Shown here: positions 2,964 through 34,471 of the stretch, piece by piece
How positions within the stretch are numbered: position 1 is the first letter of the stretch
Layout of the letters: every line of letters starts with the position of its first letter
DNA from: Candidatus Thorarchaeota archaeon
GTDB taxonomy: Archaea > Asgardarchaeota > Thorarchaeia > Thorarchaeales > Thorarchaeaceae
DNA length: 64,000 nt
Reading direction: 5' to 3'
Assembly (NCBI GenBank): GCA_020348985.1
Contig: CP070761.1
Span: forward strand, 2,571,912 to 2,635,911
Program-made: the position numbers and the translations under genes
The notes under the pieces: generated by a model
What the model saw: the letters and a program-made list of their open reading frames with translations, nothing else
Databases searched by the model: none
Told to the model about the DNA's origin: nothing

Positions 2964-4781
2964 CTAGGATTCGTCGTTCTTGGAGCTCTGACTGTCAAGG
3001 CGATTGTTCTCTTCAGATACACCATCATCTGTAGGTACTGTGTCGAGAATTCCCAATGCCCTTTCGAGGTCTGTACGCATCTTATCATCAAGATCTTCCA
3101 ATGGCTCTACCTCGCCGTCTAGAAGTACAACCTCCTCGCAAGAGAACGCTTCGAGGGCTGTTTCGAGTTCTTCTTTGGTTGCCTTTTCAATCTCTTCCGA
3201 TACTAGATCGTCTGCATCAAGAGCCTCCGATATCAGTGCGCGTGCCATCATCGATCCGTTTGATTCATCTGCGCTTGTCTCAATTTCGCTTTCTTCGATA
3301 AGAATAGGAACTGCCTCCTCAACTTCATCGTCAGATATAGTGACTACATCAAAGTCATCAGATGCTTCTACGGGGACCATCTCTGGTGCGATTCCTTCAA
3401 CAACCACATCATCTTCAACAGCATCTTGGACTGGTATCTCGATTTCACGCTCCTCCAAATCGGCTGAAAGCGCAGCATCAACTTCAATGAAGAATTCCTC
3501 AATGGCATCCATTTCTGAGACATCCGAAACAACAGGAGATTCTTCCGTCACAGCCGCCATGTGCTCTACAATCTCTTCTGTTACAAGATCCTCATCGAAG
3601 TGTTCAATCTCATCCTCAGCACCACCAACTTCAGGTACATCGGGGATAACAGAGGGTTCTTCAGCCACTACCTCGACAGGTTCCTCGAAAATTCCCTCGG
3701 CTTCTTCTGAGTCAGGCTCCACATCGACGTACTCAATAACTTCTTCAACGATTTCGTACTCATCTGCGTCCTCAATTATCCGACCATCTTCGTCAACGAG
3801 GATTTCTTCTACAATCTCAACTGTTTCGTATTCCTCTTCAACCTCTTCTTCTGAAACAGCAGAGGCTATTACCGCAGCTGCTTCGACAGCTTCTTCTGAG
3901 AACTTGAGCAGCTCAGAGGCTGGAAGATCAGGCAACGCCACTCCGACATACTGCGCAGCAGCTGTCATTAAGATGCGAAGCATCTCATCTCGACGGCCCT
4001 TGTCAATTGCAACCATTGGATAGGTCGGAATTCCTAATATCTTCTGAACCACCTCAGGTTTCATAGCATTTGGTTTGTCTTGCTTGTTAGCTATTGCGAA
4101 GACAGGAACCTTGGGTGCATCTCGCTTTATCAGTTTGAGAATGTCTTTGCTGATTATCACATTCCTTAGGGTTGAATCGCACACGAGAATGATAACATCA
4201 GCACCGTGGAAATAAAACCGCCAGAGTGTTCGGAATCTCTCTTGGCCTGCGAAATCCCACAGAACGAGTGAGTAGTTGCCGAAACGGATGTTCTCGACAG
4301 TCTCAAGGTTGAGTGCGATTGTAGGAACGTATTGAAGGGGAGGTGTGTCACCCAGGAGGAGATGAAGAGTAGTTGTCTTCCCTGTACCGCCCTCGCCAAC
4401 CAGCGCTATCTTCAGCCTAGTAACCACCGAAGGCTCGATTATCTCCTCGAATCTCTCAAGCACGCTATTTAGATCGGCTCTTTCAATCTCAATAGTAAGA
4501 TCGTGGGCTGCTTTCTTGACACGGTCTTGAGTGCTGAGCTCATCTTCACCCTTGTCTGTGACAAACACAAGAATTGAATCATCATTAACTTCGCTGCCCA
4601 TGAACTTGTTCTGATCGATCACCAGAGGAATATCCTCTAGTGCGTCATGGTTTTCCGCTAGCTCCTCTCTTGTTGAAATGTATTCTTCAATCTCGCTGGC
4701 CCCCACCTCAACTGGCCAGTACTGAACAGATGAGAGAATCTCATTGTCGTCCAGTCGGATAAGGAAGGCATTATGAATCAT
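2964..4781 (-). CDS. Arf-like small GTPase with N-terminal longin-like domain and long acidic C-terminal tail
   Basis: G1 GEGGTGKTT, G2 YVPT, G3 WDFAGQERFRTLWRFYF, G4 NKQDKPNAM; ~120-aa N-terminal domain; ~320-aa E/D/V-rich tail. Confidence 0.88.
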   Translation of the reverse strand: MIHNAFLIRLDDNEILSSVQYWPVEVGASEIEEYISTREELAENHDALEDIPLVIDQNKFMGSEVNDDSILVFVTDKGEDELSTQDRVKKAAHDLTIEIERADLNSVLERFEEIIEPSVVTRLKIALVGEGGTGKTTTLHLLLGDTPPLQYVPTIALNLETVENIRFGNYSLVLWDFAGQERFRTLWRFYFHGADVIILVCDSTLRNVIISKDILKLIKRDAPKVPVFAIANKQDKPNAMKPEVVQKILGIPTYPMVAIDKGRRDEMLRILMTAAAQYVGVALPDLPASELLKFSEEAVEAAAVIASAVSEEEVEEEYETVEIVEEILVDEDGRIIEDADEYEIVEEVIEYVDVEPDSEEAEGIFEEPVEVVAEEPSVIPDVPEVGGAEDEIEHFDEDLVTEEIVEHMAAVTEESPVVSDVSEMDAIEEFFIEVDAALSADLEEREIEIPVQDAVEDDVVVEGIAPEMVPVEASDDFDVVTISDDEVEEAVPILIEESEIETSADESNGSMMARALISEALDADDLVSEEIEKATKEELETALEAFSCEEVVLLDGEVEPLEDLDDKMRTDLERALGILDTVPTDDGVSEENNRLDSQSSKNDES

Positions 4782-5245: not shown

Positions 5246-6406
5246 TTACCGCGGGAAGTTGTCCCTCAGTAGTCTCAGATGATGGTGGACAAGCTCCATC
5301 TGCTTTGCGTCGTCAGGAGTCTTTTCAAGCTCCACGATTAAAGTCTGAAGGAAGTATTCGGGGAAGAATAATCGCACACGAATATCGTTAAGCAAGAAGA
5401 GCCATTTATCGTACTCGCCAGATGGTCCCTTTCTTCTCTTTTCGGAGACTACTCTGAATTTCTTTAGCGTCTGAACGGCTGTTTTGAGCTCCTTCGGAGG
5501 AATGCCCAGGGTAGCTTCTAGTTCGGATATATTCACTGGCCTACGTCGGAGGACTACTAGCGTGTCGTAGGCATCGGGATCAGCCAAGATTGAAGCAACT
5601 GATACAGTATCCTCAGGTGTCTTTTTCCATTCTGTGAGGAATTCGAGTACCTCTCGTTTGTACTCAGCGGCGAGTTCCGGATCCAGAACCTGATTTGCAG
5701 CCTCCATCGCCATCAGCGGAGGAGCACGGAAGACTTCTAGGTCCTTTATCATGAACACACAGGTCCGGCCAATTTCGTCGACCCATTCACTCTTGACAAG
5801 TCCGAGTTCCTCAAAGGGTGAGAGGATCGAATCGACACTGACGCTTGGAAGACCAGTTACCATCTTCAACCATTCTTCTAGCTCTTCTTTGGATATGCCA
5901 CCCTTCCAGAGCTTCGGAAACACGGCCCTAGAGACTTCCTCTGAAAAGAGACGAGCTAAGCGGCTCTCATCAGCCATTCCCGCGAGCCGGATGATCCTCC
6001 TGTAGGTGTTATCAAGCTCGCCCTGCAGCTCTGCATCAGTCATAGAAATTACTGCATTAGTTATGGGTGAGACGACCGATGTTATGGCCGCCTCAAACAT
6101 CTTGGGGTCTTCGCCTGTTGTAAGAAGCAGTGAGATGCAATACTGCTCCTCTTCACGAACAATACCAGTATAATATGATGCAACTTGGTATTCCTCTCCC
6201 CCAATCCTGACGCTCAGTGATGCAAAACCTGCAGTGGCGTCTCCCATGGCGTGAGATGTGAAGATCCTCATAATCTCTGTGTTCAAGTCCTCTCGGTATC
6301 CATCCGCAAAATTCGCGGGCACCTTAGTCTTGAGGACTGCTCCGATTTTGCTATCCCAATCTATCAACAAGAGGGCTACGGGCAAGTACAGTATCTCCTT
6401 GTCCAT
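5246..6406 (-). CDS. uDENN/longin-domain protein with C-terminal winged helices (NPRL2-like architecture)
   Basis: N-terminal LLLIDWDSKIGAVLKTKVP resembles the uDENN/NPRL2 beta1-beta2 motif (F.EFHPTLGPKITYQVP); two wHTH-like segments (ISKEELEEWL..FEELGLV and VNISELEATLG..LKKFRVV). Confidence 0.6.
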   Translation of the reverse strand: MDKEILYLPVALLLIDWDSKIGAVLKTKVPANFADGYREDLNTEIMRIFTSHAMGDATAGFASLSVRIGGEEYQVASYYTGIVREEEQYCISLLLTTGEDPKMFEAAITSVVSPITNAVISMTDAELQGELDNTYRRIIRLAGMADESRLARLFSEEVSRAVFPKLWKGGISKEELEEWLKMVTGLPSVSVDSILSPFEELGLVKSEWVDEIGRTCVFMIKDLEVFRAPPLMAMEAANQVLDPELAAEYKREVLEFLTEWKKTPEDTVSVASILADPDAYDTLVVLRRRPVNISELEATLGIPPKELKTAVQTLKKFRVVSEKRRKGPSGEYDKWLFLLNDIRVRLFFPEYFLQTLIVELEKTPDDAKQMELVHHHLRLLRDNFPR

Positions 6407-11964: not shown

Positions 11965-12492
11965 CTAAATCGTGGTCTTAGCAAGCTCTTGGAATGCCTC
12001 TTCTACGTTCTGACCGGTCAGAGCACTTGTCTCCAGATAGCCGTTGAGACCATTCTCTTCGACAAACTGCTTGCCCTCCTCCGTCGAAATGACTCGTTCA
12101 CCCTCGAGATCCACTTTGTTTGCCAAGAGTATAATGGGAATCCGTTCGTTCAGCGCATCTTCAGTTTCGGTGATCCACTTCGGCAATTCGATGAATGTGC
12201 TCTTCCGAGTGGTATCAAACACAAGCAGGGCACCCTTGGATCCACGGTAGTACGCGGCTCTGATGAAGTCGAATCGTTCTTGTCCAGCAAGATCCCAGAC
12301 GAGAAGCTTGACAACAACATCTTTACCGTTGTTCTTCTCTACTAAAACGGTCTTGACGGCGAACTGTGATCCAATCGTGACTATGTATTGCTCTGAGAAC
12401 TTGTTCGTCAGGAACCGATTGACGATGGCAGTCTTTCCGCTTCCACCGGCGCCTATCATTACCACTTTGCGCATGAAATCGAATTCCGACAC
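11965..12492 (-). CDS. Rab-like small GTPase
   Basis: GAGGSGKT, YIVTIG.QF, WDLAGQERF, YYRG, NKVD and ETSA; probable GTG start 12492 (track 12534); no C-terminal Cys. Confidence 0.93.
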   Translation of the reverse strand: MSEFDFMRKVVMIGAGGSGKTAIVNRFLTNKFSEQYIVTIGSQFAVKTVLVEKNNGKDVVVKLLVWDLAGQERFDFIRAAYYRGSKGALLVFDTTRKSTFIELPKWITETEDALNERIPIILLANKVDLEGERVISTEEGKQFVEENGLNGYLETSALTGQNVEEAFQELAKTTI

Positions 12493-12716
12493 GTTCTCCC
12501 AAACCTCAATCATTGATTCAAATACTTGCAGCATACAAGCTTTGGCTGGCCTTGTTGAAGGAGCTTGCTCTCGCTGAGTTGGCCGTGATGCTATTTAGTC
12601 TTTATTGGATTGCCCTTCTGGTTGTTGTCGGCCCTAGAGACTAGAAGCGCGACCAATAATGAGAAAACTTTCGTTGGAAGGCGCGGTATCGAGAGTATAA
12701 TCCATTCATCTCGAAG

Positions 12717-27767: not shown

Positions 27768-28517
27768 TCAGATCAATTCTCCGTTGGACATCTTCAAATG
27801 ACGCGCACTCTCGGTATGGATTATGTCCAAATCATGAGTCATCACAATGACGGCCTTCCCTTTGGCGTTCAGTTGTCTGAGGAGCGACCTCACCATCTCT
27901 GCACTATCCTCGTCCAAGTTAGCCGTAGGCTCATCAGCAAGAATTATCGGAGGGTCGTTTGCCATCGCTCTAGCAATTGCGACTCTTTGCTGCTCGCCAG
28001 AACTGAGCTGCCAAGGCAAGTGATCAAATCGTTCCTCAAGGCCAACTGTGGTGAGTAATACTTGAGCGTCGTGTGTTAGTTCACCTATCGGCTTGGTCGA
28101 AAGCTGCATGGGAAACATGACATTCTCCAAGGCTGTCAGAGTGGAGATCAGATTATAACTCTGGAAGATGAACCCTGTATTCTGAAGTCTGAAATTCGAA
28201 CGGAAAGTCTCGTCATAGTCTCCTATGGGAACATCCATGACGATAACTCTACCTTCGGATGCCACGTCGATTGCCCCAATGATATTCAGAAGCGTGGTCT
28301 TTCCCGATCCAGAGTGGCCAGAGATTACAACAAACTCTCCTGGCTTCACATCCAGGGTGACCTGTCTCAGCGCTTCAATGCGCCTCTTACCCAGTTTGAA
28401 GGTTCTTGAGACTCCCTCTAGTCGCACTGCACTCCTGACTATATCGAGTCCATCAAGCTCATCAATGTCAATCTCTTCATCTTCGATGTGACTTCCTAGT
28501 ACTGTGTCTTCATCCAT
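27768..28517 (-). CDS. ABC ATP-binding protein (LolD type)
   Basis: [16 protein letters not shown] and DEPTANLD; probable start 28517. Confidence 0.95.
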
Positions 28518-28608
28518 TGTTCTTGACCCTCTATGGAGATGCCTGCAAGTGGTCGTAATTGCGAATTCAGAGCCAATCCTCTTGAAGATAAGGATAGGGG
28601 TTGTTGAG

Positions 28609-29364
28609 CTAATGCACCAGTAGATCATGGTTTATTAGTGCGTCCCGGGCCCAATCCGATAGTATAAGTGGGCGCTCTCTTCCGAAGACCTTGATTGTAC
28701 TCAGTATGTCCATTTGCACGAGCTGACTGGTGTAATAGCTAATCAGACTTTTGTCAACTGCTAAGGTTCTGCTTAGCTCGGCTTGTGTCATTCTTCCGTT
28801 TGCGAGCCCTTCAACAAGAATCGACCTTATCGTGGGATTTCTGGCGGAAGCAGCTAGTCTCAGAACAGAATCCTCAATTGAGAAGCTGCTCGGGAAGAAA
28901 TGCCTAGTGTTCCCTTGCCTAATACTAATTACCTCGGCCTCCCGTTCCAAGCTGATTAGGTGGTATTGAAGTGCACCCATGGCGCATCCTAATGCTCTAT
29001 GAAGCTCTCTTAGATGAATACCCGGACTGGCTGCTATTTCGTCCGCCACCCGGTCTCTAAGCTTCTTGTTTCGGACCTCCTCCCGCCGTTCAGTCGCGAC
29101 AGTGCCAACGATCAGGAATAGGGCATATGTGGTGAGACTGTTCACCATCGTATCTGGAAAGAGAGCAAGAGTACCGCCACTTACAGTTGCTGTGACCATG
29201 TCAATCCGCATCTTGGATGTGGCCGACATTACGGGTTCAGAGGCCTCAGCCACCGCAAGCGTTCCGTTTCCCGGCCCTGCGCTAGACATCAGTATGGAAA
29301 GAAGACTGGTCATAACTAGGGCAGCTGCAATTGCAACAGCTATTCTACGGCCTATCCGTCCCAT
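28609..29364 (-). CDS. Membrane-anchored double winged-helix regulator
   Basis: N-terminal TMs; PGIHLRELHR..GALQYHL and MTQAELSR..SLISYY HTH motifs. Confidence 0.8.
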   Translation of the reverse strand: MGRIGRRIAVAIAAALVMTSLLSILMSSAGPGNGTLAVAEASEPVMSATSKMRIDMVTATVSGGTLALFPDTMVNSLTTYALFLIVGTVATERREEVRNKKLRDRVADEIAASPGIHLRELHRALGCAMGALQYHLISLEREAEVISIRQGNTRHFFPSSFSIEDSVLRLAASARNPTIRSILVEGLANGRMTQAELSRTLAVDKSLISYYTSQLVQMDILSTIKVFGRERPLILSDWARDALINHDLLVH

Positions 29365-29430: not shown

Positions 29431-29979
29431 CTATCCTCTTTGGGGGTAGCTGAGAGTTATCTTGAAGGAGCAATGCGGCCCGCCCACTGACATGCAGGAC
29501 TCTTCCTCCACAATAAGCTTCTCATACTCGATTCGATTGAAGTCCGTTAGGTATTCGAGAACGGCCTCAACAAATCCGCGAAGGAAATAGCAACTTGGCT
29601 CTTGGCTTTCTAGACCTGAAGCGTAAGGATTCTCTCCAATCTCAATGATTGCCTCTTCATCTAGCCAGAGTTTGTATAGCTTGGAAATCCTGACATCACC
29701 AAATGGAACTATGAGATTCTCAAGTGCCATCTTGATGAACTCTACGATGCCCTTGAAGTCGCCAGGGGGTTTCTGTTTCCCTACTTTGAAGTACTCACGC
29801 TGTGCTTCAAGTCCAGCCAGGCGTCCTGCACTATAATACAAATCACGAATACGATCAGGAAACATGACGGCAATCCTATTGCCAAGCATTGTCCACGTCT
29901 TCGAGAAGAAAGCACGCATTGTCTGACGCTGCTTCAGCTTGCCAGTCCACCATGGCGGAATATCCTTTGTGTTCGACAT
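29431..29979 (-). CDS. V4R/TRAPP-fold protein
   Basis: YSAGRLAG, ENPYA, SCYFLRGFVEAVL and EESCMSVGGPHCSF. Confidence 0.85.
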   Translation of the reverse strand: MSNTKDIPPWWTGKLKQRQTMRAFFSKTWTMLGNRIAVMFPDRIRDLYYSAGRLAGLEAQREYFKVGKQKPPGDFKGIVEFIKMALENLIVPFGDVRISKLYKLWLDEEAIIEIGENPYASGLESQEPSCYFLRGFVEAVLEYLTDFNRIEYEKLIVEEESCMSVGGPHCSFKITLSYPQRG

Positions 29980-30055
29980 CTGGCGGCCTCTTTAATGACA
30001 GAGACTGAGCAGCACGTGTTAAGTGCTTTACTGGGATTGACCTGCAAAACGTGGC

Positions 30056-30529
30056 TCAGTTTAGTCTAATATTCCAAACGCAGTTATCCGCACCAGTTGC
30101 TCGACTTGCTTCTTGGAATACTTTCGCTTGTACGTCCTTGAACTCTAGGATAGCTTCGATCATTCCGCTAAAGACCTCACAATATCCAAAGCCCCTCATG
30201 CCTTCGAGATTGACGTCCTGACACCATATGCAATCCTTGTCAGCAATTCGAACTGAACCCCTTGCAGTATCCATATCGACGTCTGTTGGCCTTTTGTTGT
30301 AAAGCGTTCTGAAGACCACATCGATTAGTTTCGCAACGTCCTCACGTGTCGTGACAGTCTCTTTGGTCTTCTCCACGATTTCAGAGTTAAGATAGACCTG
30401 GGACCCTAGCTCCTTTCCGATCTCCCGGAGTCTTTGATTCGCCTCATCGATACTAGAAGTTGAAGACAGCACTTGGTCAACAGTCTGTGCATACAAACCT
30501 AGCAGTAACGGATTCTCAATCTTGACCAT
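30056..30529 (-). CDS. Bet3/TRAPPC3-like V4R protein
   Basis: LYAQTV..IDEANQRLREIGKELG; CIWC; YCEVFSGMIEAIL; probable start 30529. Confidence 0.8.
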   Translation of the reverse strand: MVKIENPLLLGLYAQTVDQVLSSTSSIDEANQRLREIGKELGSQVYLNSEIVEKTKETVTTREDVAKLIDVVFRTLYNKRPTDVDMDTARGSVRIADKDCIWCQDVNLEGMRGFGYCEVFSGMIEAILEFKDVQAKVFQEASRATGADNCVWNIRLN

Positions 30530-30551
30530 TGAATGTAAGCCTCCTAGCTGT

Positions 30552-31544
30552 CTATCTTGTTTTACCAATCATTCGCATGCCGTACTTTCTGTATTTGGCA
30601 AGAATCTGAATCACTTTTGGATGTGCCACGCCAGTCTTCTCAGCGATTTGCTCAGGTGTTAGAGAACCATTGCATAGCTTGACAATCTCTATGTCAGGGC
30701 CTTGGATTTTGGAGAGGTCGCCCTCAAACTTAGGACATTTCACAAATCGGCCCATAGCTGCTTCTTCTGCGGCTACAGCCTCCTCTCCACCTTCTGGCAC
30801 AGTCACAATCTTCCGCGACGCCGCCCATTTCAGAAGGTCGGAGACTCGCTCTGTGGACTGAAACATTGTGTCGGCTATCTCTTCTACGTTCTTGCTTCCA
30901 TCGACAAGCATCAGAACGTCGAACCCGAAGTTCCTGTAGGCGGACTTCATCTCGCTGTATAGATCCGACTCAAGTGAAAGCGCTGACGCATACGCTTCGC
31001 CCCTCTCAGGAACAGTGGTCGTCGTCACTGAGAATGATTCTGGACTTGTCACTTCCGTTTCAGCAGGGGCATCAGCTGTTGCCGATGGTTCGGAAAGTGC
31101 TTCTGCTGGCGCGGGTTCAGGTTCAGGAGGTGGTGCCTCAGTTGCTGCTGCCTTCATAGCGATGCTTTCGAGAACCTGAAGATTGTCTTCAGCTGCATCT
31201 TCGAACTCTTCTGGAGGTGGTGGGAGCTCAACTCCTTCTAGAAGTCGTAGGACGTTTTTCGTCTTCGCGATTGCAAGACCCAGCTGCAATTCCGGAACGT
31301 ATAGAACGGTCAGAATCCAATTTTCATCTACTGGAGACAGGACAACAAGACCTCGGTCCGTATCAATAGTCATGAGGCGCAGGTCGGACTTGTACAGATT
31401 GATGCTGTCCTTGACACGAGGAAATAGCTCATCAGGGAAAGCGAAGCTCACAAACGGCCGTCCAGCCTTGGTCATCAGTGAGTATCCTATCACTTGATCA
31501 TCGAAACGAAGTTTCGAAAGTGCACGTTCCAAGTCCATGGACAT
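30552..31544 (-). CDS. Roadblock/LC7-domain protein with PPPP linker and tandem winged helices
   Basis: VIGYSLMTKAGRPF..LQLGLA roadblock pattern; LVDGSKNVEEIA and LCNGSLTPEQIA wHTH motifs. Confidence 0.75.
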   Translation of the reverse strand: MSMDLERALSKLRFDDQVIGYSLMTKAGRPFVSFAFPDELFPRVKDSINLYKSDLRLMTIDTDRGLVVLSPVDENWILTVLYVPELQLGLAIAKTKNVLRLLEGVELPPPPEEFEDAAEDNLQVLESIAMKAAATEAPPPEPEPAPAEALSEPSATADAPAETEVTSPESFSVTTTTVPERGEAYASALSLESDLYSEMKSAYRNFGFDVLMLVDGSKNVEEIADTMFQSTERVSDLLKWAASRKIVTVPEGGEEAVAAEEAAMGRFVKCPKFEGDLSKIQGPDIEIVKLCNGSLTPEQIAEKTGVAHPKVIQILAKYRKYGMRMIGKTR

Positions 31545-31736
31545 TTCCTAACACCCTGCGCAATATGGAATAGGCCCGACCCCGGCCATTCACAGCTCTT
31601 CCTCAGATGGTGGTCTATAAAGGATTGTGGTGCTGTACTCTTCCGCGACGACTCTTTTTCGATTCTCCGAGAGTCAAAAACGATTAAGAAGAGCTGTATC
31701 ACCCAACAAAGTGCAAGAGCGAGAGGATATTGGAAG

Positions 31737-32312
31737 ATGAGAAACTTTCTGGGCGCACTAGTTGGCGCTCTAATGGGTACGTCACTAATTGTGGCCATTA
31801 CAGGGCTCGCCCCACCCTCATATCCTGCGCCCCTCGACCTTGTATGGTTCGTACTAGCTGGAAGCGAATCACTGCTGCTATCAGTTCTAGATGCCGTTGA
31901 TCCAACAAGCATGCTTGTGGGAACTATGGTCTGGATTGCTATGGGGGTAATCGCAGGGCTAGTCGCAACTTCTCGTTGGAATGTTCTAAGATCAGTCCTG
32001 TGGATGGGCGTCCTGGTGGCAGTTCTTGGACTTGTGTCCCTCTTCGCAATATCTCCAGACTTATGGTTTCAGGACCAAGCAGTAAGAAACACAGTGATTC
32101 TGTATCGCTTTGTGACAACATTGCTACTGTCATTGGTGTCTGTGCTAGGCGCATTGCCAGTAGCTATGGCGATTATTACAATCAGAAAGAAGTCACTAGC
32201 CCTCCCTCCAGGTAAAATCGAGACAATATGTGAATGCGGTGCGATCTTCAAGTCAAAGCCATTGATGTGTTCTGAATGTGGAAGGTTTTTGAGTGACAAC
32301 CAGTCCAAATAG
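31737..32312 (+). CDS. 4-TM membrane protein with C-terminal Zn ribbon
   Basis: Hydrophobic helices; CECG..CSECG; ATG 31737 follows GAGG (track start 31494 is unlikely). Confidence 0.8.
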   Translation: MRNFLGALVGALMGTSLIVAITGLAPPSYPAPLDLVWFVLAGSESLLLSVLDAVDPTSMLVGTMVWIAMGVIAGLVATSRWNVLRSVLWMGVLVAVLGLVSLFAISPDLWFQDQAVRNTVILYRFVTTLLLSLVSVLGALPVAMAIITIRKKSLALPPGKIETICECGAIFKSKPLMCSECGRFLSDNQSK

Positions 32313-32330
32313 ACCGAACACCGAGAGGCA

Positions 32331-32879
32331 TCAGCGATCCCGGCTTATTCCTCCTCCCAATAGGCCACCAACAATGGATGCAACGCCAGGCCAGATGCTT
32401 CCTTGAAGTGCAAGTTGCATGATAATCATGGACTCGGTGCCGAATAGTGCGAAGAGGTCGGCATAGGGCTGAATTAGAAAAATCAGGAGCCAAGTCAGGA
32501 ATGCACCGATGATAACGGCAAACAAGGATGCGAAGAGGCCTTCGAGGAAGCCCCTAGCTAGAAGCCCAGCGACAAGACCTGCTGTGCCCCATGTGACAAA
32601 TGTGAGAACAGTTGTCTGGGTTGCGCCAAAGCTCAGGTGGCTTCCAAGATAATACGGATAAAGCACAGTCCCAACAATAGCCACCCGCAATTCTAAGTCG
32701 TTCACAGACAAAAACTCGGACACGAGTGCAGGTGGAATTACCTGTGAAGGTATGAACAGGCCGAATGTCAAGACTAGGAAAGCCATTACATATGCTACGA
32801 CAAGTCCTACAATCATTCCAAGTCCTTGACCCAATGCATATCCTCCAGTGGTTCTTCTAGCTCTCAAGTCCTCTCTCAA
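32331..32879 (-). CDS. 4-TM glycine-rich membrane protein (probable paralogue of 31737..32312)
   Basis: TWGTAGLVAGLLAR matches VWIAMGVIAGLVAT; GGLLGG. Confidence 0.8.
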   Translation of the reverse strand: MREDLRARRTTGGYALGQGLGMIVGLVVAYVMAFLVLTFGLFIPSQVIPPALVSEFLSVNDLELRVAIVGTVLYPYYLGSHLSFGATQTTVLTFVTWGTAGLVAGLLARGFLEGLFASLFAVIIGAFLTWLLIFLIQPYADLFALFGTESMIIMQLALQGSIWPGVASIVGGLLGGGISRDR

Positions 32880-32933
32880 GTGTTCACTTTTATGCCTATT
32901 CCATGGGAACTAAGCCTAGAACACACTGGAGGT

Positions 32934-33440
32934 CTAGTCTCTGAGTCGAATGGTCCAGGTGCATGTTCCGTCTCCTACAGCTTTGCACGACTCTTGATAG
33001 GCTTCTCCGTTGAATCCTCGCAGATCGAGAACAGCCTGAAACACTCCGCTTACAAGATTGCAATACTGGAGACCTGGCATGTCGGTGATATGGACACCTT
33101 CACATAGCGGACACTCTTCATCGCTAAACTTCACAGCTCGCTTGTCATCACTCAGCCAGATGTTTGTGAATTCTTGACCCGAGTTGACCTTGTAGGCGAG
33201 ATGGAGGGTCGACGAGAATTCGTGAAATGCCTTTGCGTGCGCTCGGATCCTCTCCGCATAATCCATGAGCAGGTGCTCGCCTACCTTGTACCCCATGTCC
33301 AACAGCTTCTCATTAATGGCATCGACACTTTCGCTGCTCGATATCAACAAGTTGAGGAGCTCCCGATACATGCTCTGAAACAGGGGCTTAGCGACCTTCG
33401 GTGTCATGAATCTCCAGGCTACCTTTCCTCTGAAGCCCAT
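32934..33440 (-). CDS. Bet3/TRAPPC3-like V4R protein
   Basis: LFQSMY..INEKLLDMGYKVGEHLLMDY and LQYCNLVSGVFQAVL closely parallel the Bet3 motifs LF..TY..VNKQLDKMG.NIG.RLIEDF and L.YSN.LCGVL.G.L. Confidence 0.85.
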   Translation of the reverse strand: MGFRGKVAWRFMTPKVAKPLFQSMYRELLNLLISSSESVDAINEKLLDMGYKVGEHLLMDYAERIRAHAKAFHEFSSTLHLAYKVNSGQEFTNIWLSDDKRAVKFSDEECPLCEGVHITDMPGLQYCNLVSGVFQAVLDLRGFNGEAYQESCKAVGDGTCTWTIRLRD

Positions 33441-33461
33441 TCCTTTGTTCCTCCATGATAT

Positions 33462-34394
33462 CTAGTTGATTTCTATGATCTTTCGGATAAACCGTACGGT
33501 CTTGCCACGATAGGGTACGATTGACTGTAGTGCTTGGAAGTATGGAATGTCCAACTCGCCAGCTATATCATGAATTGTGCGGTTGCCATCACAAAGAGCA
33601 AGCACTTCACGGTGCTGTTTCTTTGCCTTGCTTAGTTTCCCCTCAAATAGAGGAACCTCAACGACCTCCTTCTGACTAGTCTCTTGTACTTCGGGACATT
33701 CTAGCGTGACAACATGTCTTGAAGTGCACCATTTGACAACCTCAAGGACTCGTTCCACTCGTCGGGCCAGAGATTCAGCGATCCCGAATACAGTCCGCTG
33801 TTCATCCACCATCAGAAGTACATCGACTCCCATGTTGGAAAAACCGCCAACCAGAAGTCTGTTGAGTTCACTATCAATGCTTGTTGCTTCTTGGTACAAA
33901 TCACCCCGAAGGACCACACAACCATGGGAAATGGAAATCTCATCGAGTGGTATGTCTTCCTTCTCTTCGACGACAACAACCTCAGGCAGAGCTTCTTGAA
34001 CAACTGATGCAGAGGCTTGGACTGCTGTTGCAACCTCTGTCATGGCGGGAATTATGCGGCTTGGTGGTGGAGGAAGATCCACACCCTCAAGTAGAGTGAC
34101 CACGTCTTGCGTTCTCTGAAGCGCCAGACCAAGAGGAGAATCGGGGGAGAAGACCACTGCAAGAACCCAATTGACATCCACTCTTGCAAGGATTACGGTC
34201 CCCTCACTGGACATGACATTCATCAGTTTCAATGAGGAGGAATAGATTTCCATGGTTCCTTTGATTATCGGCACAGTCTCGTCAGGAAGTGAGAAAGTCA
34301 GGAAAGGCATGCCATCGTTGGTAATAAGAGCGTATCCATTAACTGATTCATCGTATCTTAGTTTAGTCAGTACACGCTCTAGTGCCAATCCCAA
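33462..34394 (-). CDS. Roadblock/LC7-domain protein with PPPP linker and tandem winged helices (paralogue of 30552..31544)
   Basis: LERVLTKLRYDESVNGYALITNDGMPF..PLGLAL; MVDEQRTV..IA and LCDGNRTIHDIA. Confidence 0.78.
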   Translation of the reverse strand: MGLALERVLTKLRYDESVNGYALITNDGMPFLTFSLPDETVPIIKGTMEIYSSSLKLMNVMSSEGTVILARVDVNWVLAVVFSPDSPLGLALQRTQDVVTLLEGVDLPPPPSRIIPAMTEVATAVQASASVVQEALPEVVVVEEKEDIPLDEISISHGCVVLRGDLYQEATSIDSELNRLLVGGFSNMGVDVLLMVDEQRTVFGIAESLARRVERVLEVVKWCTSRHVVTLECPEVQETSQKEVVEVPLFEGKLSKAKKQHREVLALCDGNRTIHDIAGELDIPYFQALQSIVPYRGKTVRFIRKIIEIN

Positions 34395-34471
34395 GACACC
34401 CTTCCGTTTTGACCGGCAGATTACCCGCCTAGCACTTGCCTTCGACGCTTAAGTAGATTATTCCGAGTAGT

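Follow-up and report, generated by a model that had tools for sequence, protein, structure and literature searches.

A duplicated roadblock-winged-helix and Bet3-like gene pair with a V4R gene in Thorarchaeaceae: a conserved locus and its possible link to small GTPase regulation

The 64,000-nucleotide stretch analysed here, called the window below, comes from the 3.16-Mb single-contig genome of a Candidatus Thorarchaeota archaeon (contig CP070761.1, positions 2,571,912 to 2,635,911), and this work concerns the seven genes at window positions 29431-34394. An earlier note, made from the sequence alone, had described this region as a duplicated cassette of roadblock and Bet3/V4R genes. The coordinates and strands of its seven open reading frames (ORFs) were verified, and within 5 kb the region contains three genes for Bet3/V4R-fold proteins and two for proteins that combine a roadblock domain with winged helices (roadblock-wH). 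Below, f1 denotes the family Thorarchaeaceae and f2 a sister family in the same order (Thorarchaeales), which is known from one genome, G025. The genes are:

33462-34394, minus strand: RbA, roadblock domain, acidic linker and two winged helices (ORF and AlphaFold2 fold)
32934-33440, minus strand: Bet3A, TRAPPC3/Bet3-like protein bearing a Zn site, the uncrystallised paralogue (PF04051, 37.5 bits)
32331-32879, minus strand: TM4, small multi-pass membrane protein (alignment and phylum scan)
31737-32312, plus strand: TMZn, membrane protein with a C-terminal zinc ribbon (start codon reading and ortholog alignment)
30552-31544, minus strand: RbB, same architecture as RbA (ORF, paralogy and tree)
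30056-30529 (longest ORF start 30568), minus strand: Bet3B, orthologue of Thor-TRAPPC3 (PF04051, 40.1 bits; 7YH2 match)
29431-29979, minus strand: V4R-fold protein (PF02830, 40.5 bits; AlphaFold2 model)

TMZn is convergent to TM4 and divergent from RbB. All its orthologues begin at the counterpart of the ATG at 31737, which is thus taken as the true start in place of the TTG at 31494 that opens the longest ORF. Bet3B most likely starts at the ATG at 30529, and the true start of RbA may be the TTG at 34388. Bet3A lies 21 nt downstream of RbA.

The roadblock-Bet3 pair does occur twice. RbA and RbB (34% identity, E 2e-55) and Bet3A and Bet3B (23% identity, E 3e-27) are true paralogues, with matches far beyond chance, and no TRAPP-domain or roadblock-wH genes other than these two of each kind were found in the genome. 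In a tree of RbA, RbB, f2 and Hermodarchaeota sequences, RbA and RbB were each monophyletic (support 99), and the terminal branches of RbB had about half the length seen in RbA, which evolves about twice as fast. The f2 sequence took no firm place in this tree, so the duplication may be older or younger than the f1/f2 split. These comparisons indicate that the cassette duplication is real and old.

Roadblock-wH matches were found in 83 of 85 f1 genomes, mostly two in each, and two TRAPP matches about 2.9 kb apart were found in 21 of the 24 other f1 genomes searched (16 genera), with a single match in the other three. The gene order was conserved as RbA-Bet3A-TM4 / TMZn / RbB-Bet3B-V4R in 18 Thorarchaeaceae loci. 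The gap between the roadblock-wH gene and the Bet3 gene had a median of 15 nt in the A pair and 25 nt in the B pair (17 loci) and was tight in every f1 locus with both ORFs called, whereas the gaps to TM4 (89 nt) and to the V4R gene (69 nt) were wider. No RNA sequencing run was listed for the 5-kb stretch. G025 carries a single triad of an RbB-like gene, a Bet3 gene and a V4R gene in the same order (locus L041), between entirely different flanks. Co-duplication, tight spacing and the order kept in f2 support the view that the roadblock and Bet3-like genes act as a genetic unit. In a few Thorarchaeaceae genomes (loci L027, L040, L032, and L034) no intact Bet3A or Bet3B ORF was called, and stops within the match were seen in G017 (TAG) and G005 (TAA); the absent ORFs may reflect assembly frameshifts or occasional loss of a paralogue.

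Both Bet3-like proteins exceeded the cut-off of 27 bits for the Pfam TRAPP family (transport protein particle; PF04051) and covered profile positions 1-152 of 154. The motifs INEKLLDMGYKVGEHLLMDY, LQYCNLVSGVFQAVL, CPLC and ESC...C were all present in the Bet3A translation, and both paralogues keep the cysteines of the Zn site (a CxxC, a YC and a C-terminal Cys; in Bet3A the CxxC, C127, and C160). Bet3B matched the structures 7YH2 and 7YH3 of Thor-TRAPPC3 with E 5e-78 and, as read from the alignment, is about 72-75% identical to that protein; Bet3A is about 25-30% identical. Thor-TRAPPC3 was crystallised from two Thorarchaeota metagenome-assembled genomes (Tran et al., 2024), and the available text of that paper (PMC10933270) describes a homodimer like TRAPPC3/C6, with a PoxR-like Cys4-Zn site and internal hydrophobic cavities, for which its authors favour ligand binding. 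Because Bet3B is the orthologue of the crystallised protein, an intermediate with a Cys4-Zn site was already known; the earlier description of Bet3A as standing between V4R and Bet3 was right about the motifs and the Cys ligands, and the point itself had been published for the Bet3B orthologue (PMC10933270).

The Bet3A profile matched eukaryotic TRAPPC3/Bet3 at 3.5e-11 to 1e-6, and the Bet3B profile matched eukaryotic TRAPPC5 and TRAPPC3 at about 1e-3 only. By profile comparison Bet3A, the unstudied paralogue, is much the more TRAPPC3-like of the two. These results fit a 2026 preprint in which Asgard clusters group with TRAPPC5/6 and with TRAPPC3. When the Bet3A profile was aligned to 3kxc, an invariant Ala (HAxxF) of Bet3A fell at the site of Cys68 (mutated in that entry), the residue that is palmitoylated in human TRAPPC3. 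Bet3A orthologues carry the Joint Genome Institute annotation "predicted hydrocarbon binding protein". A single complex prediction of RbA with Bet3A from paired-order alignments gave an interaction prediction score from aligned errors (ipSAE) of 0.03, which counts neither for nor against binding.

The V4R protein scored well above the PF02830 cut-off of 31 bits, and its AlphaFold2 model (predicted local distance difference test, pLDDT, 87.5) has a complete domain with the order H-H-H-E-E-H-E-E. Its gene is more conserved than any other in the cluster (65% mean column identity); the protein has three invariant Cys and no CxxC. Its Foldseek matches, at probability 1.00, were split evenly between the MopR/DmpR/PoxR sensors and TRAPPC3.

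The AlphaFold2 model of RbA, made from 36 orthologues, reached a pLDDT of 90.4. It comprises a roadblock domain (residues 1-106) with alpha-beta-beta-alpha-beta-beta-beta-alpha order over residues 1-102, then an acidic linker that is disordered, and a tandem of winged helices, wH1 and wH2 (about residues 158-234 and 242-310). Residues 1-111 matched roadblock proteins at Z 12-13 in a structure search, and VIA-align superposed the roadblock domain on 9jue, 2zl1_B, 5yk3_G, and 7ct3 with a root-mean-square deviation (rmsd) of 2.2-2.7 Å over 102-109 residues (Z 12-13). The structural matches include Asgard roadblock homodimers, LAMTOR2/p14 (Z 13, 23-26% identity), MglB/MglC (Z 11-13) and Streptomyces Roadblock/LC7; Mon1-Ccz1 and profilin-like folds matched the model too, at Z of about 10.5-11. 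Profile searches of the N-terminal domain and of the winged-helix region against Protein Data Bank sequences gave marginal matches only. The second winged helix resembles HTH_47 consistently and DUF742 weakly; HTH_47 matched 24 of 36 family members below the Pfam threshold, and weak TrmB, ArsR, and MarR-type profile matches on the winged helices were likewise below the Pfam thresholds. The roadblock domain is acidic, wH1 is neutral to acidic and the linker is strongly acidic.

Full-length relatives of the roadblock-wH proteins are rare: only about five clusters were found in 1.84 billion representative proteins (Thorarchaeota and Hermodarchaeota types and a short f2 form), and all remoter matches cover just the winged helices of tandem winged helix-turn-helix (wHTH), TrmB-like proteins. 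One remote relative of the winged-helix region passes Pfam HTH_NPRL3. In a multi-domain Foldseek search, about 345 columns aligned to 368-402-residue chains of GATOR1 and SEA complex entries, chains that we presume to be NPRL2/Npr2, with an rmsd of 16-22 Å, so the likeness is limited to domain order. Two candidates were rejected. A longin-like gene at 5246-6406, beside an Arf-like GTPase gene, shows no detectable relation to the winged helices of the roadblock-wH proteins (hhalign probability 0.4, and no Pfam match). A 406-residue protein of genome G027, which has a V4R/TRAPP-like C-terminus and is encoded beside two Ras-family GTPases, is not a Rosetta-stone fusion (hhalign probability 0.2 between its N-terminus and roadblock-wH).

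Directly after the roadblock domain, the motif LPPPP (RbA residues 107-111) is invariant or nearly so in 36 of 36 RbA, RbB, and f2 sequences, and the Hermodarchaeota homologues have a very proline-rich linker in its place. In an f7 Asgard genome (L078 7271-9063), a gene for a related protein, with a roadblock-like domain, an acidic linker and an HTH_47 winged helix, directly follows a gelsolin-domain gene. The gelsolin neighbour and the invariant LPPPP are hints of a possible actin/profilin link.

These observations establish the folds and the paralogy of the proteins and show that the operon is tight and conserved. To account for them we favour, tentatively and at somewhat less than an even chance, a Thorarchaeales-specific soluble module of Bet3/V4R-fold ligand binders and a roadblock-wH adaptor, which probably acts on a small GTPase. 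The Bet3/V4R-fold proteins would be sensor subunits that bind a lipid-like or hydrophobic ligand. The roadblock-wH proteins would dimerise through their roadblock domains and serve as adaptor or output subunits. Their target, on the model of MglB, LAMTOR2, CvnB-CvnC/MfpD-MfpC, and NPRL2/3, would be a small GTPase whose gene lies elsewhere. None of the tests run here makes the module a TRAPP complex, and it should not be taken for a proven one.

The earlier note had postulated a Rab/Arf-like partner; in all 18 Thorarchaeaceae loci examined the cassette has no GTPase gene within about 8 kb, and only the sister-family genome has one beside the triad. The window has two GTPase genes, one Arf-like with a long tail (2964-4781) and one Ras/Rab-like (11965-12534), at a distance of about 17-31 kb from the cassette. 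The G025 triad lies head to head with a gene for a divergent small GTPase (about 240 residues), followed by a TPR/SNAP-like gene and a gene for a 1261-residue protein with a PPC-like domain (L041 8003-13695). G025 has 23 Ras-family genes in 2.2 Mb, about 1% of its genes, which puts the chance of a GTPase neighbour at roughly 2%. The orthologous operon of GTPase, TPR protein and large protein lies 31 kb from the cassette in the window genome (G000:C1:2567897-2570089, just upstream of the window start, with the GTPase gene at 2569397-2570089), which has 30 Ras-family genes. The G025 neighbourhood, from one genome, is suggestive of a GTPase link. In Lokiarchaeon MK-D1, GTPase genes generally lie outside the operons of roadblock, longin, or TRAPPC3 genes, and genome layout seldom shows which regulators act together, according to the available text of PMC10933270.

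Several observations besides the missing GTPase neighbour weigh against the proposed soluble module. About 20 flanking housekeeping genes share the same order across 16 genera, so gene order within f1 is by itself unspecific as evidence of function. The Robl_LC7 sequence profile (PF03259) reached at best 12 bits (E 0.18, RbB only) against a cut-off of 23; the roadblock-wHTH label thus stands by fold, from the AlphaFold2 model and Z 12-13, and not by sequence. DUF742 matched 4 of 36 roadblock-wH members, all below the cut-off (best E 1.5e-4). A search for longer relatives of the Bet3 alignment (322-2000 residues) found none, hence no roadblock-Bet3 fusion, which is weak evidence. The second winged helix is basic (isoelectric point, pI, about 9.2) in RbA, RbB, and the f2 protein and is compatible with DNA binding too, and fusions of Roadblock with HTH_24, a DNA-binding wHTH, occur in Bathyarchaeota.

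The last two points belong to the main rival, a transcription regulator of split polypeptides. It would sense a ligand or redox state (through Cys/Zn) with its Bet3/V4R proteins, bind DNA with its roadblock-wH proteins and control nearby genes. V4R is the sensor module of the activators MopR, DmpR, and PoxR, all three of which are among the best fold matches of the V4R gene, and the remote relatives and weak profile matches of the winged helices, TrmB-like and of ArsR and MarR type, point the same way. Weak matches to the transcription regulator MsvR (NCBIfam NF053755) also speak for this rival; they were confined to the C-terminal V4R part and, at 13-17.6 bits (E 0.002-0.06) against a cut-off of 220, do not make the proteins MsvR. 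Two upstream motifs also bear on this rival:

31612-31632, minus strand: promoter-like motif CACCACAATCCTTTATAGACC, 21 nt, in the divergent intergenic region between RbB and TMZn, about 70-90 nt upstream of the RbB start
34448-34459, minus strand: conserved motif AATCTACTTAAG, unlike the RbB motif, about 55-65 nt upstream of RbA

The RbB motif, with the consensus form CACCACAATCCTTT(A/T)(T/C)AGA, was present in 17 of the 18 orthologous regions upstream of RbB, and none of the 17 regions upstream of RbA contained it. It is conserved beyond the bare need of a TATA box and a transcription factor B recognition element and may combine a promoter with a regulator site. The RbA motif followed the pattern [TC]TA[CA]TTA[AT] in 13 of 17 RbA upstream regions and possibly overlaps the end of the upstream PfkB gene in some genomes. 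Such a highly conserved motif upstream of RbB would suit a transcription regulator, but the RbA and RbB upstream regions have neither a common motif nor a palindromic operator that we could see. The acidic character of the linker and the neutral to acidic wH1 also count against DNA binding, all HTH matches are below threshold, and the best wHTH families (HTH_47, DUF742, and PqqD-like) are not classical DNA binders. Roadblock domains, moreover, are best known as platforms of GTPase regulation. We consider a transcription regulator fairly unlikely, though a serious competitor.

A role in lipid handling or membrane homeostasis turns on the membrane proteins TM4 and TMZn. Here Bet3/V4R proteins would bind isoprenoid or acyl lipids and work with TM4 and TMZn, and the roadblock-wH protein would dock on the cytosolic zinc ribbon of TMZn. 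TM4 carries the motifs WGxGGLxAGL and GGLLGG. In TMZn the zinc ribbon KIETxCECGAVFKSxPLICSECG is invariant and the membrane part drifts, which makes the ribbon a plausible docking site for the module. The label of four transmembrane segments given to both is approximate, a crude hydropathy scan giving 3-4 hydrophobic segments for TM4 and about 5 for TMZn. Neither protein matched a Pfam family, and the ESM Atlas gave no informative function. An hhalign comparison of the two (probability 66%, E 6e-5) makes paralogy plausible, short of establishing it.

A phylum scan found TM4 to be a single-copy family across many Asgard families. TM4 and TMZn are paired in families f1, f2, f8, f12, f13, and f15, and one or both are contiguous with a geranylgeranyl reductase (GGR) gene in families f8, f13, f3, f31, and f12. 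The window locus and the loci in which the TM pair, or TMZn alone, adjoins GGR are:

31737-32879: the window
L102 6405-8696
L092 6488-9176
L094 9693-11531
L091 1131-3003
L074 9835-12255

The arrangements were GGR>TM4>TMZn or GGR>TMZn, with gaps of 3-9 nt in the GGR>TM4>TMZn loci of f8, and GluRS was often near. No roadblock, Bet3, or V4R gene was found near the GGR-linked TM4/TMZn genes in these five families. A candidate interpretation of these neighbourhoods is that GGR, TM4, and TMZn form a separate, conserved Asgard-wide module linked to membrane-lipid saturation. In Hermodarchaeota a shorter homologue with a roadblock domain, a linker and a winged helix is encoded beside homologues of TMZn and TM4, with the orientation changed, and that locus has no Bet3 or V4R gene. 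The most economical history would start from a GluRS / TMZn-TM4-GGR block already present in Asgard genomes. A roadblock-wH gene would have been inserted beside this block in the ancestor of the Thorarchaeota and Hermodarchaeota; in Thorarchaeales it would have gained its Bet3 and V4R partners, and the roadblock-Bet3 unit would have duplicated around the TM pair.

The lipid role draws on the contiguity of GGR with TM4/TMZn, on the fact that the roadblock gene adjoins the TM pair in Hermodarchaeota as well as in Thorarchaeaceae, although the orientation is rearranged, and on the invariant zinc ribbon. It also draws on the binding of palmitate by eukaryotic TRAPPC3 and the hydrophobic cavities of Thor-TRAPPC3, both reported in the available text of PMC10933270. 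Yet in G025 the triad and the TM pair lie on different contigs, and the TM pair is widespread where roadblock, Bet3, and V4R genes are lacking. No GGR gene adjoins the pair in Thorarchaeaceae, where the best GGR match of the window genome is 30% identical, and Bet3A has Ala where eukaryotic TRAPPC3 has the palmitoylated Cys. A lipid-handling function seems unlikely to us. The TM pair of G025 abuts two Snf7 genes (endosomal sorting complex required for transport III, ESCRT-III; L085 7171-9628, contig C23), a single observation. An ESCRT link of the pair was rejected on the window genome, whose Snf7 genes lie at 1.86 and 2.97 Mb, more than 350 kb away.

The distribution of TM4 and TMZn also bears on the earlier note's own proposal of a membrane-tethered proto-TRAPP, in which a Bet3A/Bet3B/V4R heteromer, with roadblock proteins in place of longins, acts on a Rab/Arf-like GTPase as its guanine nucleotide exchange factor (GEF). 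The tether is weakened because neither membrane protein is peculiar to the cassette and both belong to an older, separate Asgard-wide module, which is linked to GGR in loci that lack roadblock, Bet3, and V4R genes. In favour of a proto-TRAPP, there are three Bet3/V4R-fold paralogues, Bet3A is specifically TRAPPC3-like and Bet3B is equally near to TRAPPC5 and TRAPPC3, and roadblock and longin are related platform folds, as the match of the roadblock model to Mon1-Ccz1 illustrates. The GTPase neighbour in G025 and the many Ras-family genes of the window genome would fit as well. However, the Rab-binding surface of TRAPP is built mainly by longin subunits (textbook knowledge), and the locus genes scanned contained no longin or sedlin Pfam match (longins were not searched genome-wide) and the conserved locus no GTPase. 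The crystallised orthologue, moreover, is homodimeric, and its authors favour ligand binding (PMC10933270, available text). We regard a tethered proto-TRAPP as highly unlikely. In a further reading, an RbA/RbB dimer would assemble with all three Bet3/V4R-fold proteins into a hybrid of TRAPP and Ragulator/GATOR that predates eukaryotes, a ligand-gated GEF or GTPase-activating protein (GAP) for an Asgard small GTPase. For this distinctly unlikely hybrid, one candidate target would be the atypical GTPase encoded beside the G025 triad, with its orthologue 31 kb away in the window genome.

That the genes are neighbours by descent only, with no common function beyond the roadblock-Bet3 pair or not even that, would agree with the order shared by about 20 genes, including LysRS, GlnA, an ABC transporter, and DUF72, in all 16 genera, but is very improbable given that the f2 triad survives although all its flanks changed and that the pair was co-duplicated with both copies holding a spacing of 15-25 nt.

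The soluble module with a probable GTPase target has partial counterparts among known systems. Bet3B shares with Thor-TRAPPC3 a TRAPPC3-like fold and four Zn cysteines and, by inference, would share the homodimer and the internal cavities. The available text of PMC10933270 treats that protein in isolation and does not mention the roadblock-wH gene, Bet3A, or the downstream V4R gene. As in the eukaryotic TRAPP core (TRAPPC3/5/6 with TRAPPC1/4/2), several Bet3-fold paralogues are encoded together with a protein that has a small alpha-beta-alpha platform domain. The locus differs from TRAPP in that this domain is a roadblock fused to winged helices and not a longin or sedlin, a Zn site is kept, Ala stands at the palmitoyl-Cys position, and most genomes have no linked GTPase; the module is known from genes and predicted folds. 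The roadblock domain resembles those of LAMTOR2/p14 of Ragulator and of MglB/MglC at the Z scores given above. NPRL2/3 of GATOR1 likewise combine a platform domain with winged helices, the platform being a longin there and a roadblock here.

In actinobacterial G-protein systems, the roadblock protein CvnB/MfpD is a GAP and the DUF742 protein CvnC/MfpC a GEF, according to the available text of PMC11343762 and PMC9769811. The conservons (CvnA-D; MfpB-D) thus resemble the locus in having a roadblock and a DUF742/HTH_47-like wHTH, which are joined here in one polypeptide and whose DUF742 match is below threshold. They differ in that the operon has no gene for a histidine-kinase-like protein or a GTPase in the 18 Thorarchaeaceae loci, the GTPase gene adjoining in G025 only, and in having no known Bet3/V4R partners. 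The V4R gene shares a complete fold and conserved Cys with MopR/DmpR/PoxR and archaeal MsvR, but the Bet3/V4R proteins here stand alone, with no fused AAA+ or HTH output. A literature search found no paper on a roadblock-wH/Bet3 operon, in agreement with the remark in the earlier note that this architecture was not known as a described system. No description was found of the upstream roadblock-wH gene, the Bet3A paralogue, or the single triad in the sister family, and all three are seemingly undescribed.

Thor-TRAPPC3 is among the few Asgard trafficking proteins of the "eukaryotic signature" type with a solved structure, and the locus gives it an obligate genomic partner, the roadblock-wH gene 15-25 nt upstream, together with a more TRAPPC3-like paralogue and a third V4R-fold gene as leads. 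They bear on the state of Bet3-fold proteins in archaea, which may already have been joined to GTPase-regulator platforms or may still have been ordinary ligand sensors. If the hybrid with Ragulator/GATOR features were true, the partnership of Bet3-fold subunits with a GTPase regulator of the platform-domain kind would be older than eukaryogenesis. The locus also corrects the view of a membrane-tethered proto-TRAPP and exposes the candidate GGR-TM4-TMZn module as a separate, Asgard-wide entity.

The syntenic flanks of the cassette comprise genes for LysRS, a CDP-alcohol phosphatidyltransferase, a MacB-type ABC transporter, PfkB kinases, an L13e-HhH protein, DUF72, and GlnA. Downstream of the V4R gene, on the same strand, positions 27768-29364 encode a double-HTH protein of HVO_0163 type with an N-terminal hydrophobic segment. 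The end of this gene overlaps a gene for the ATPase of an ABC transporter of MacB/FtsX type, an arrangement that is kept in f1 and not in f2.

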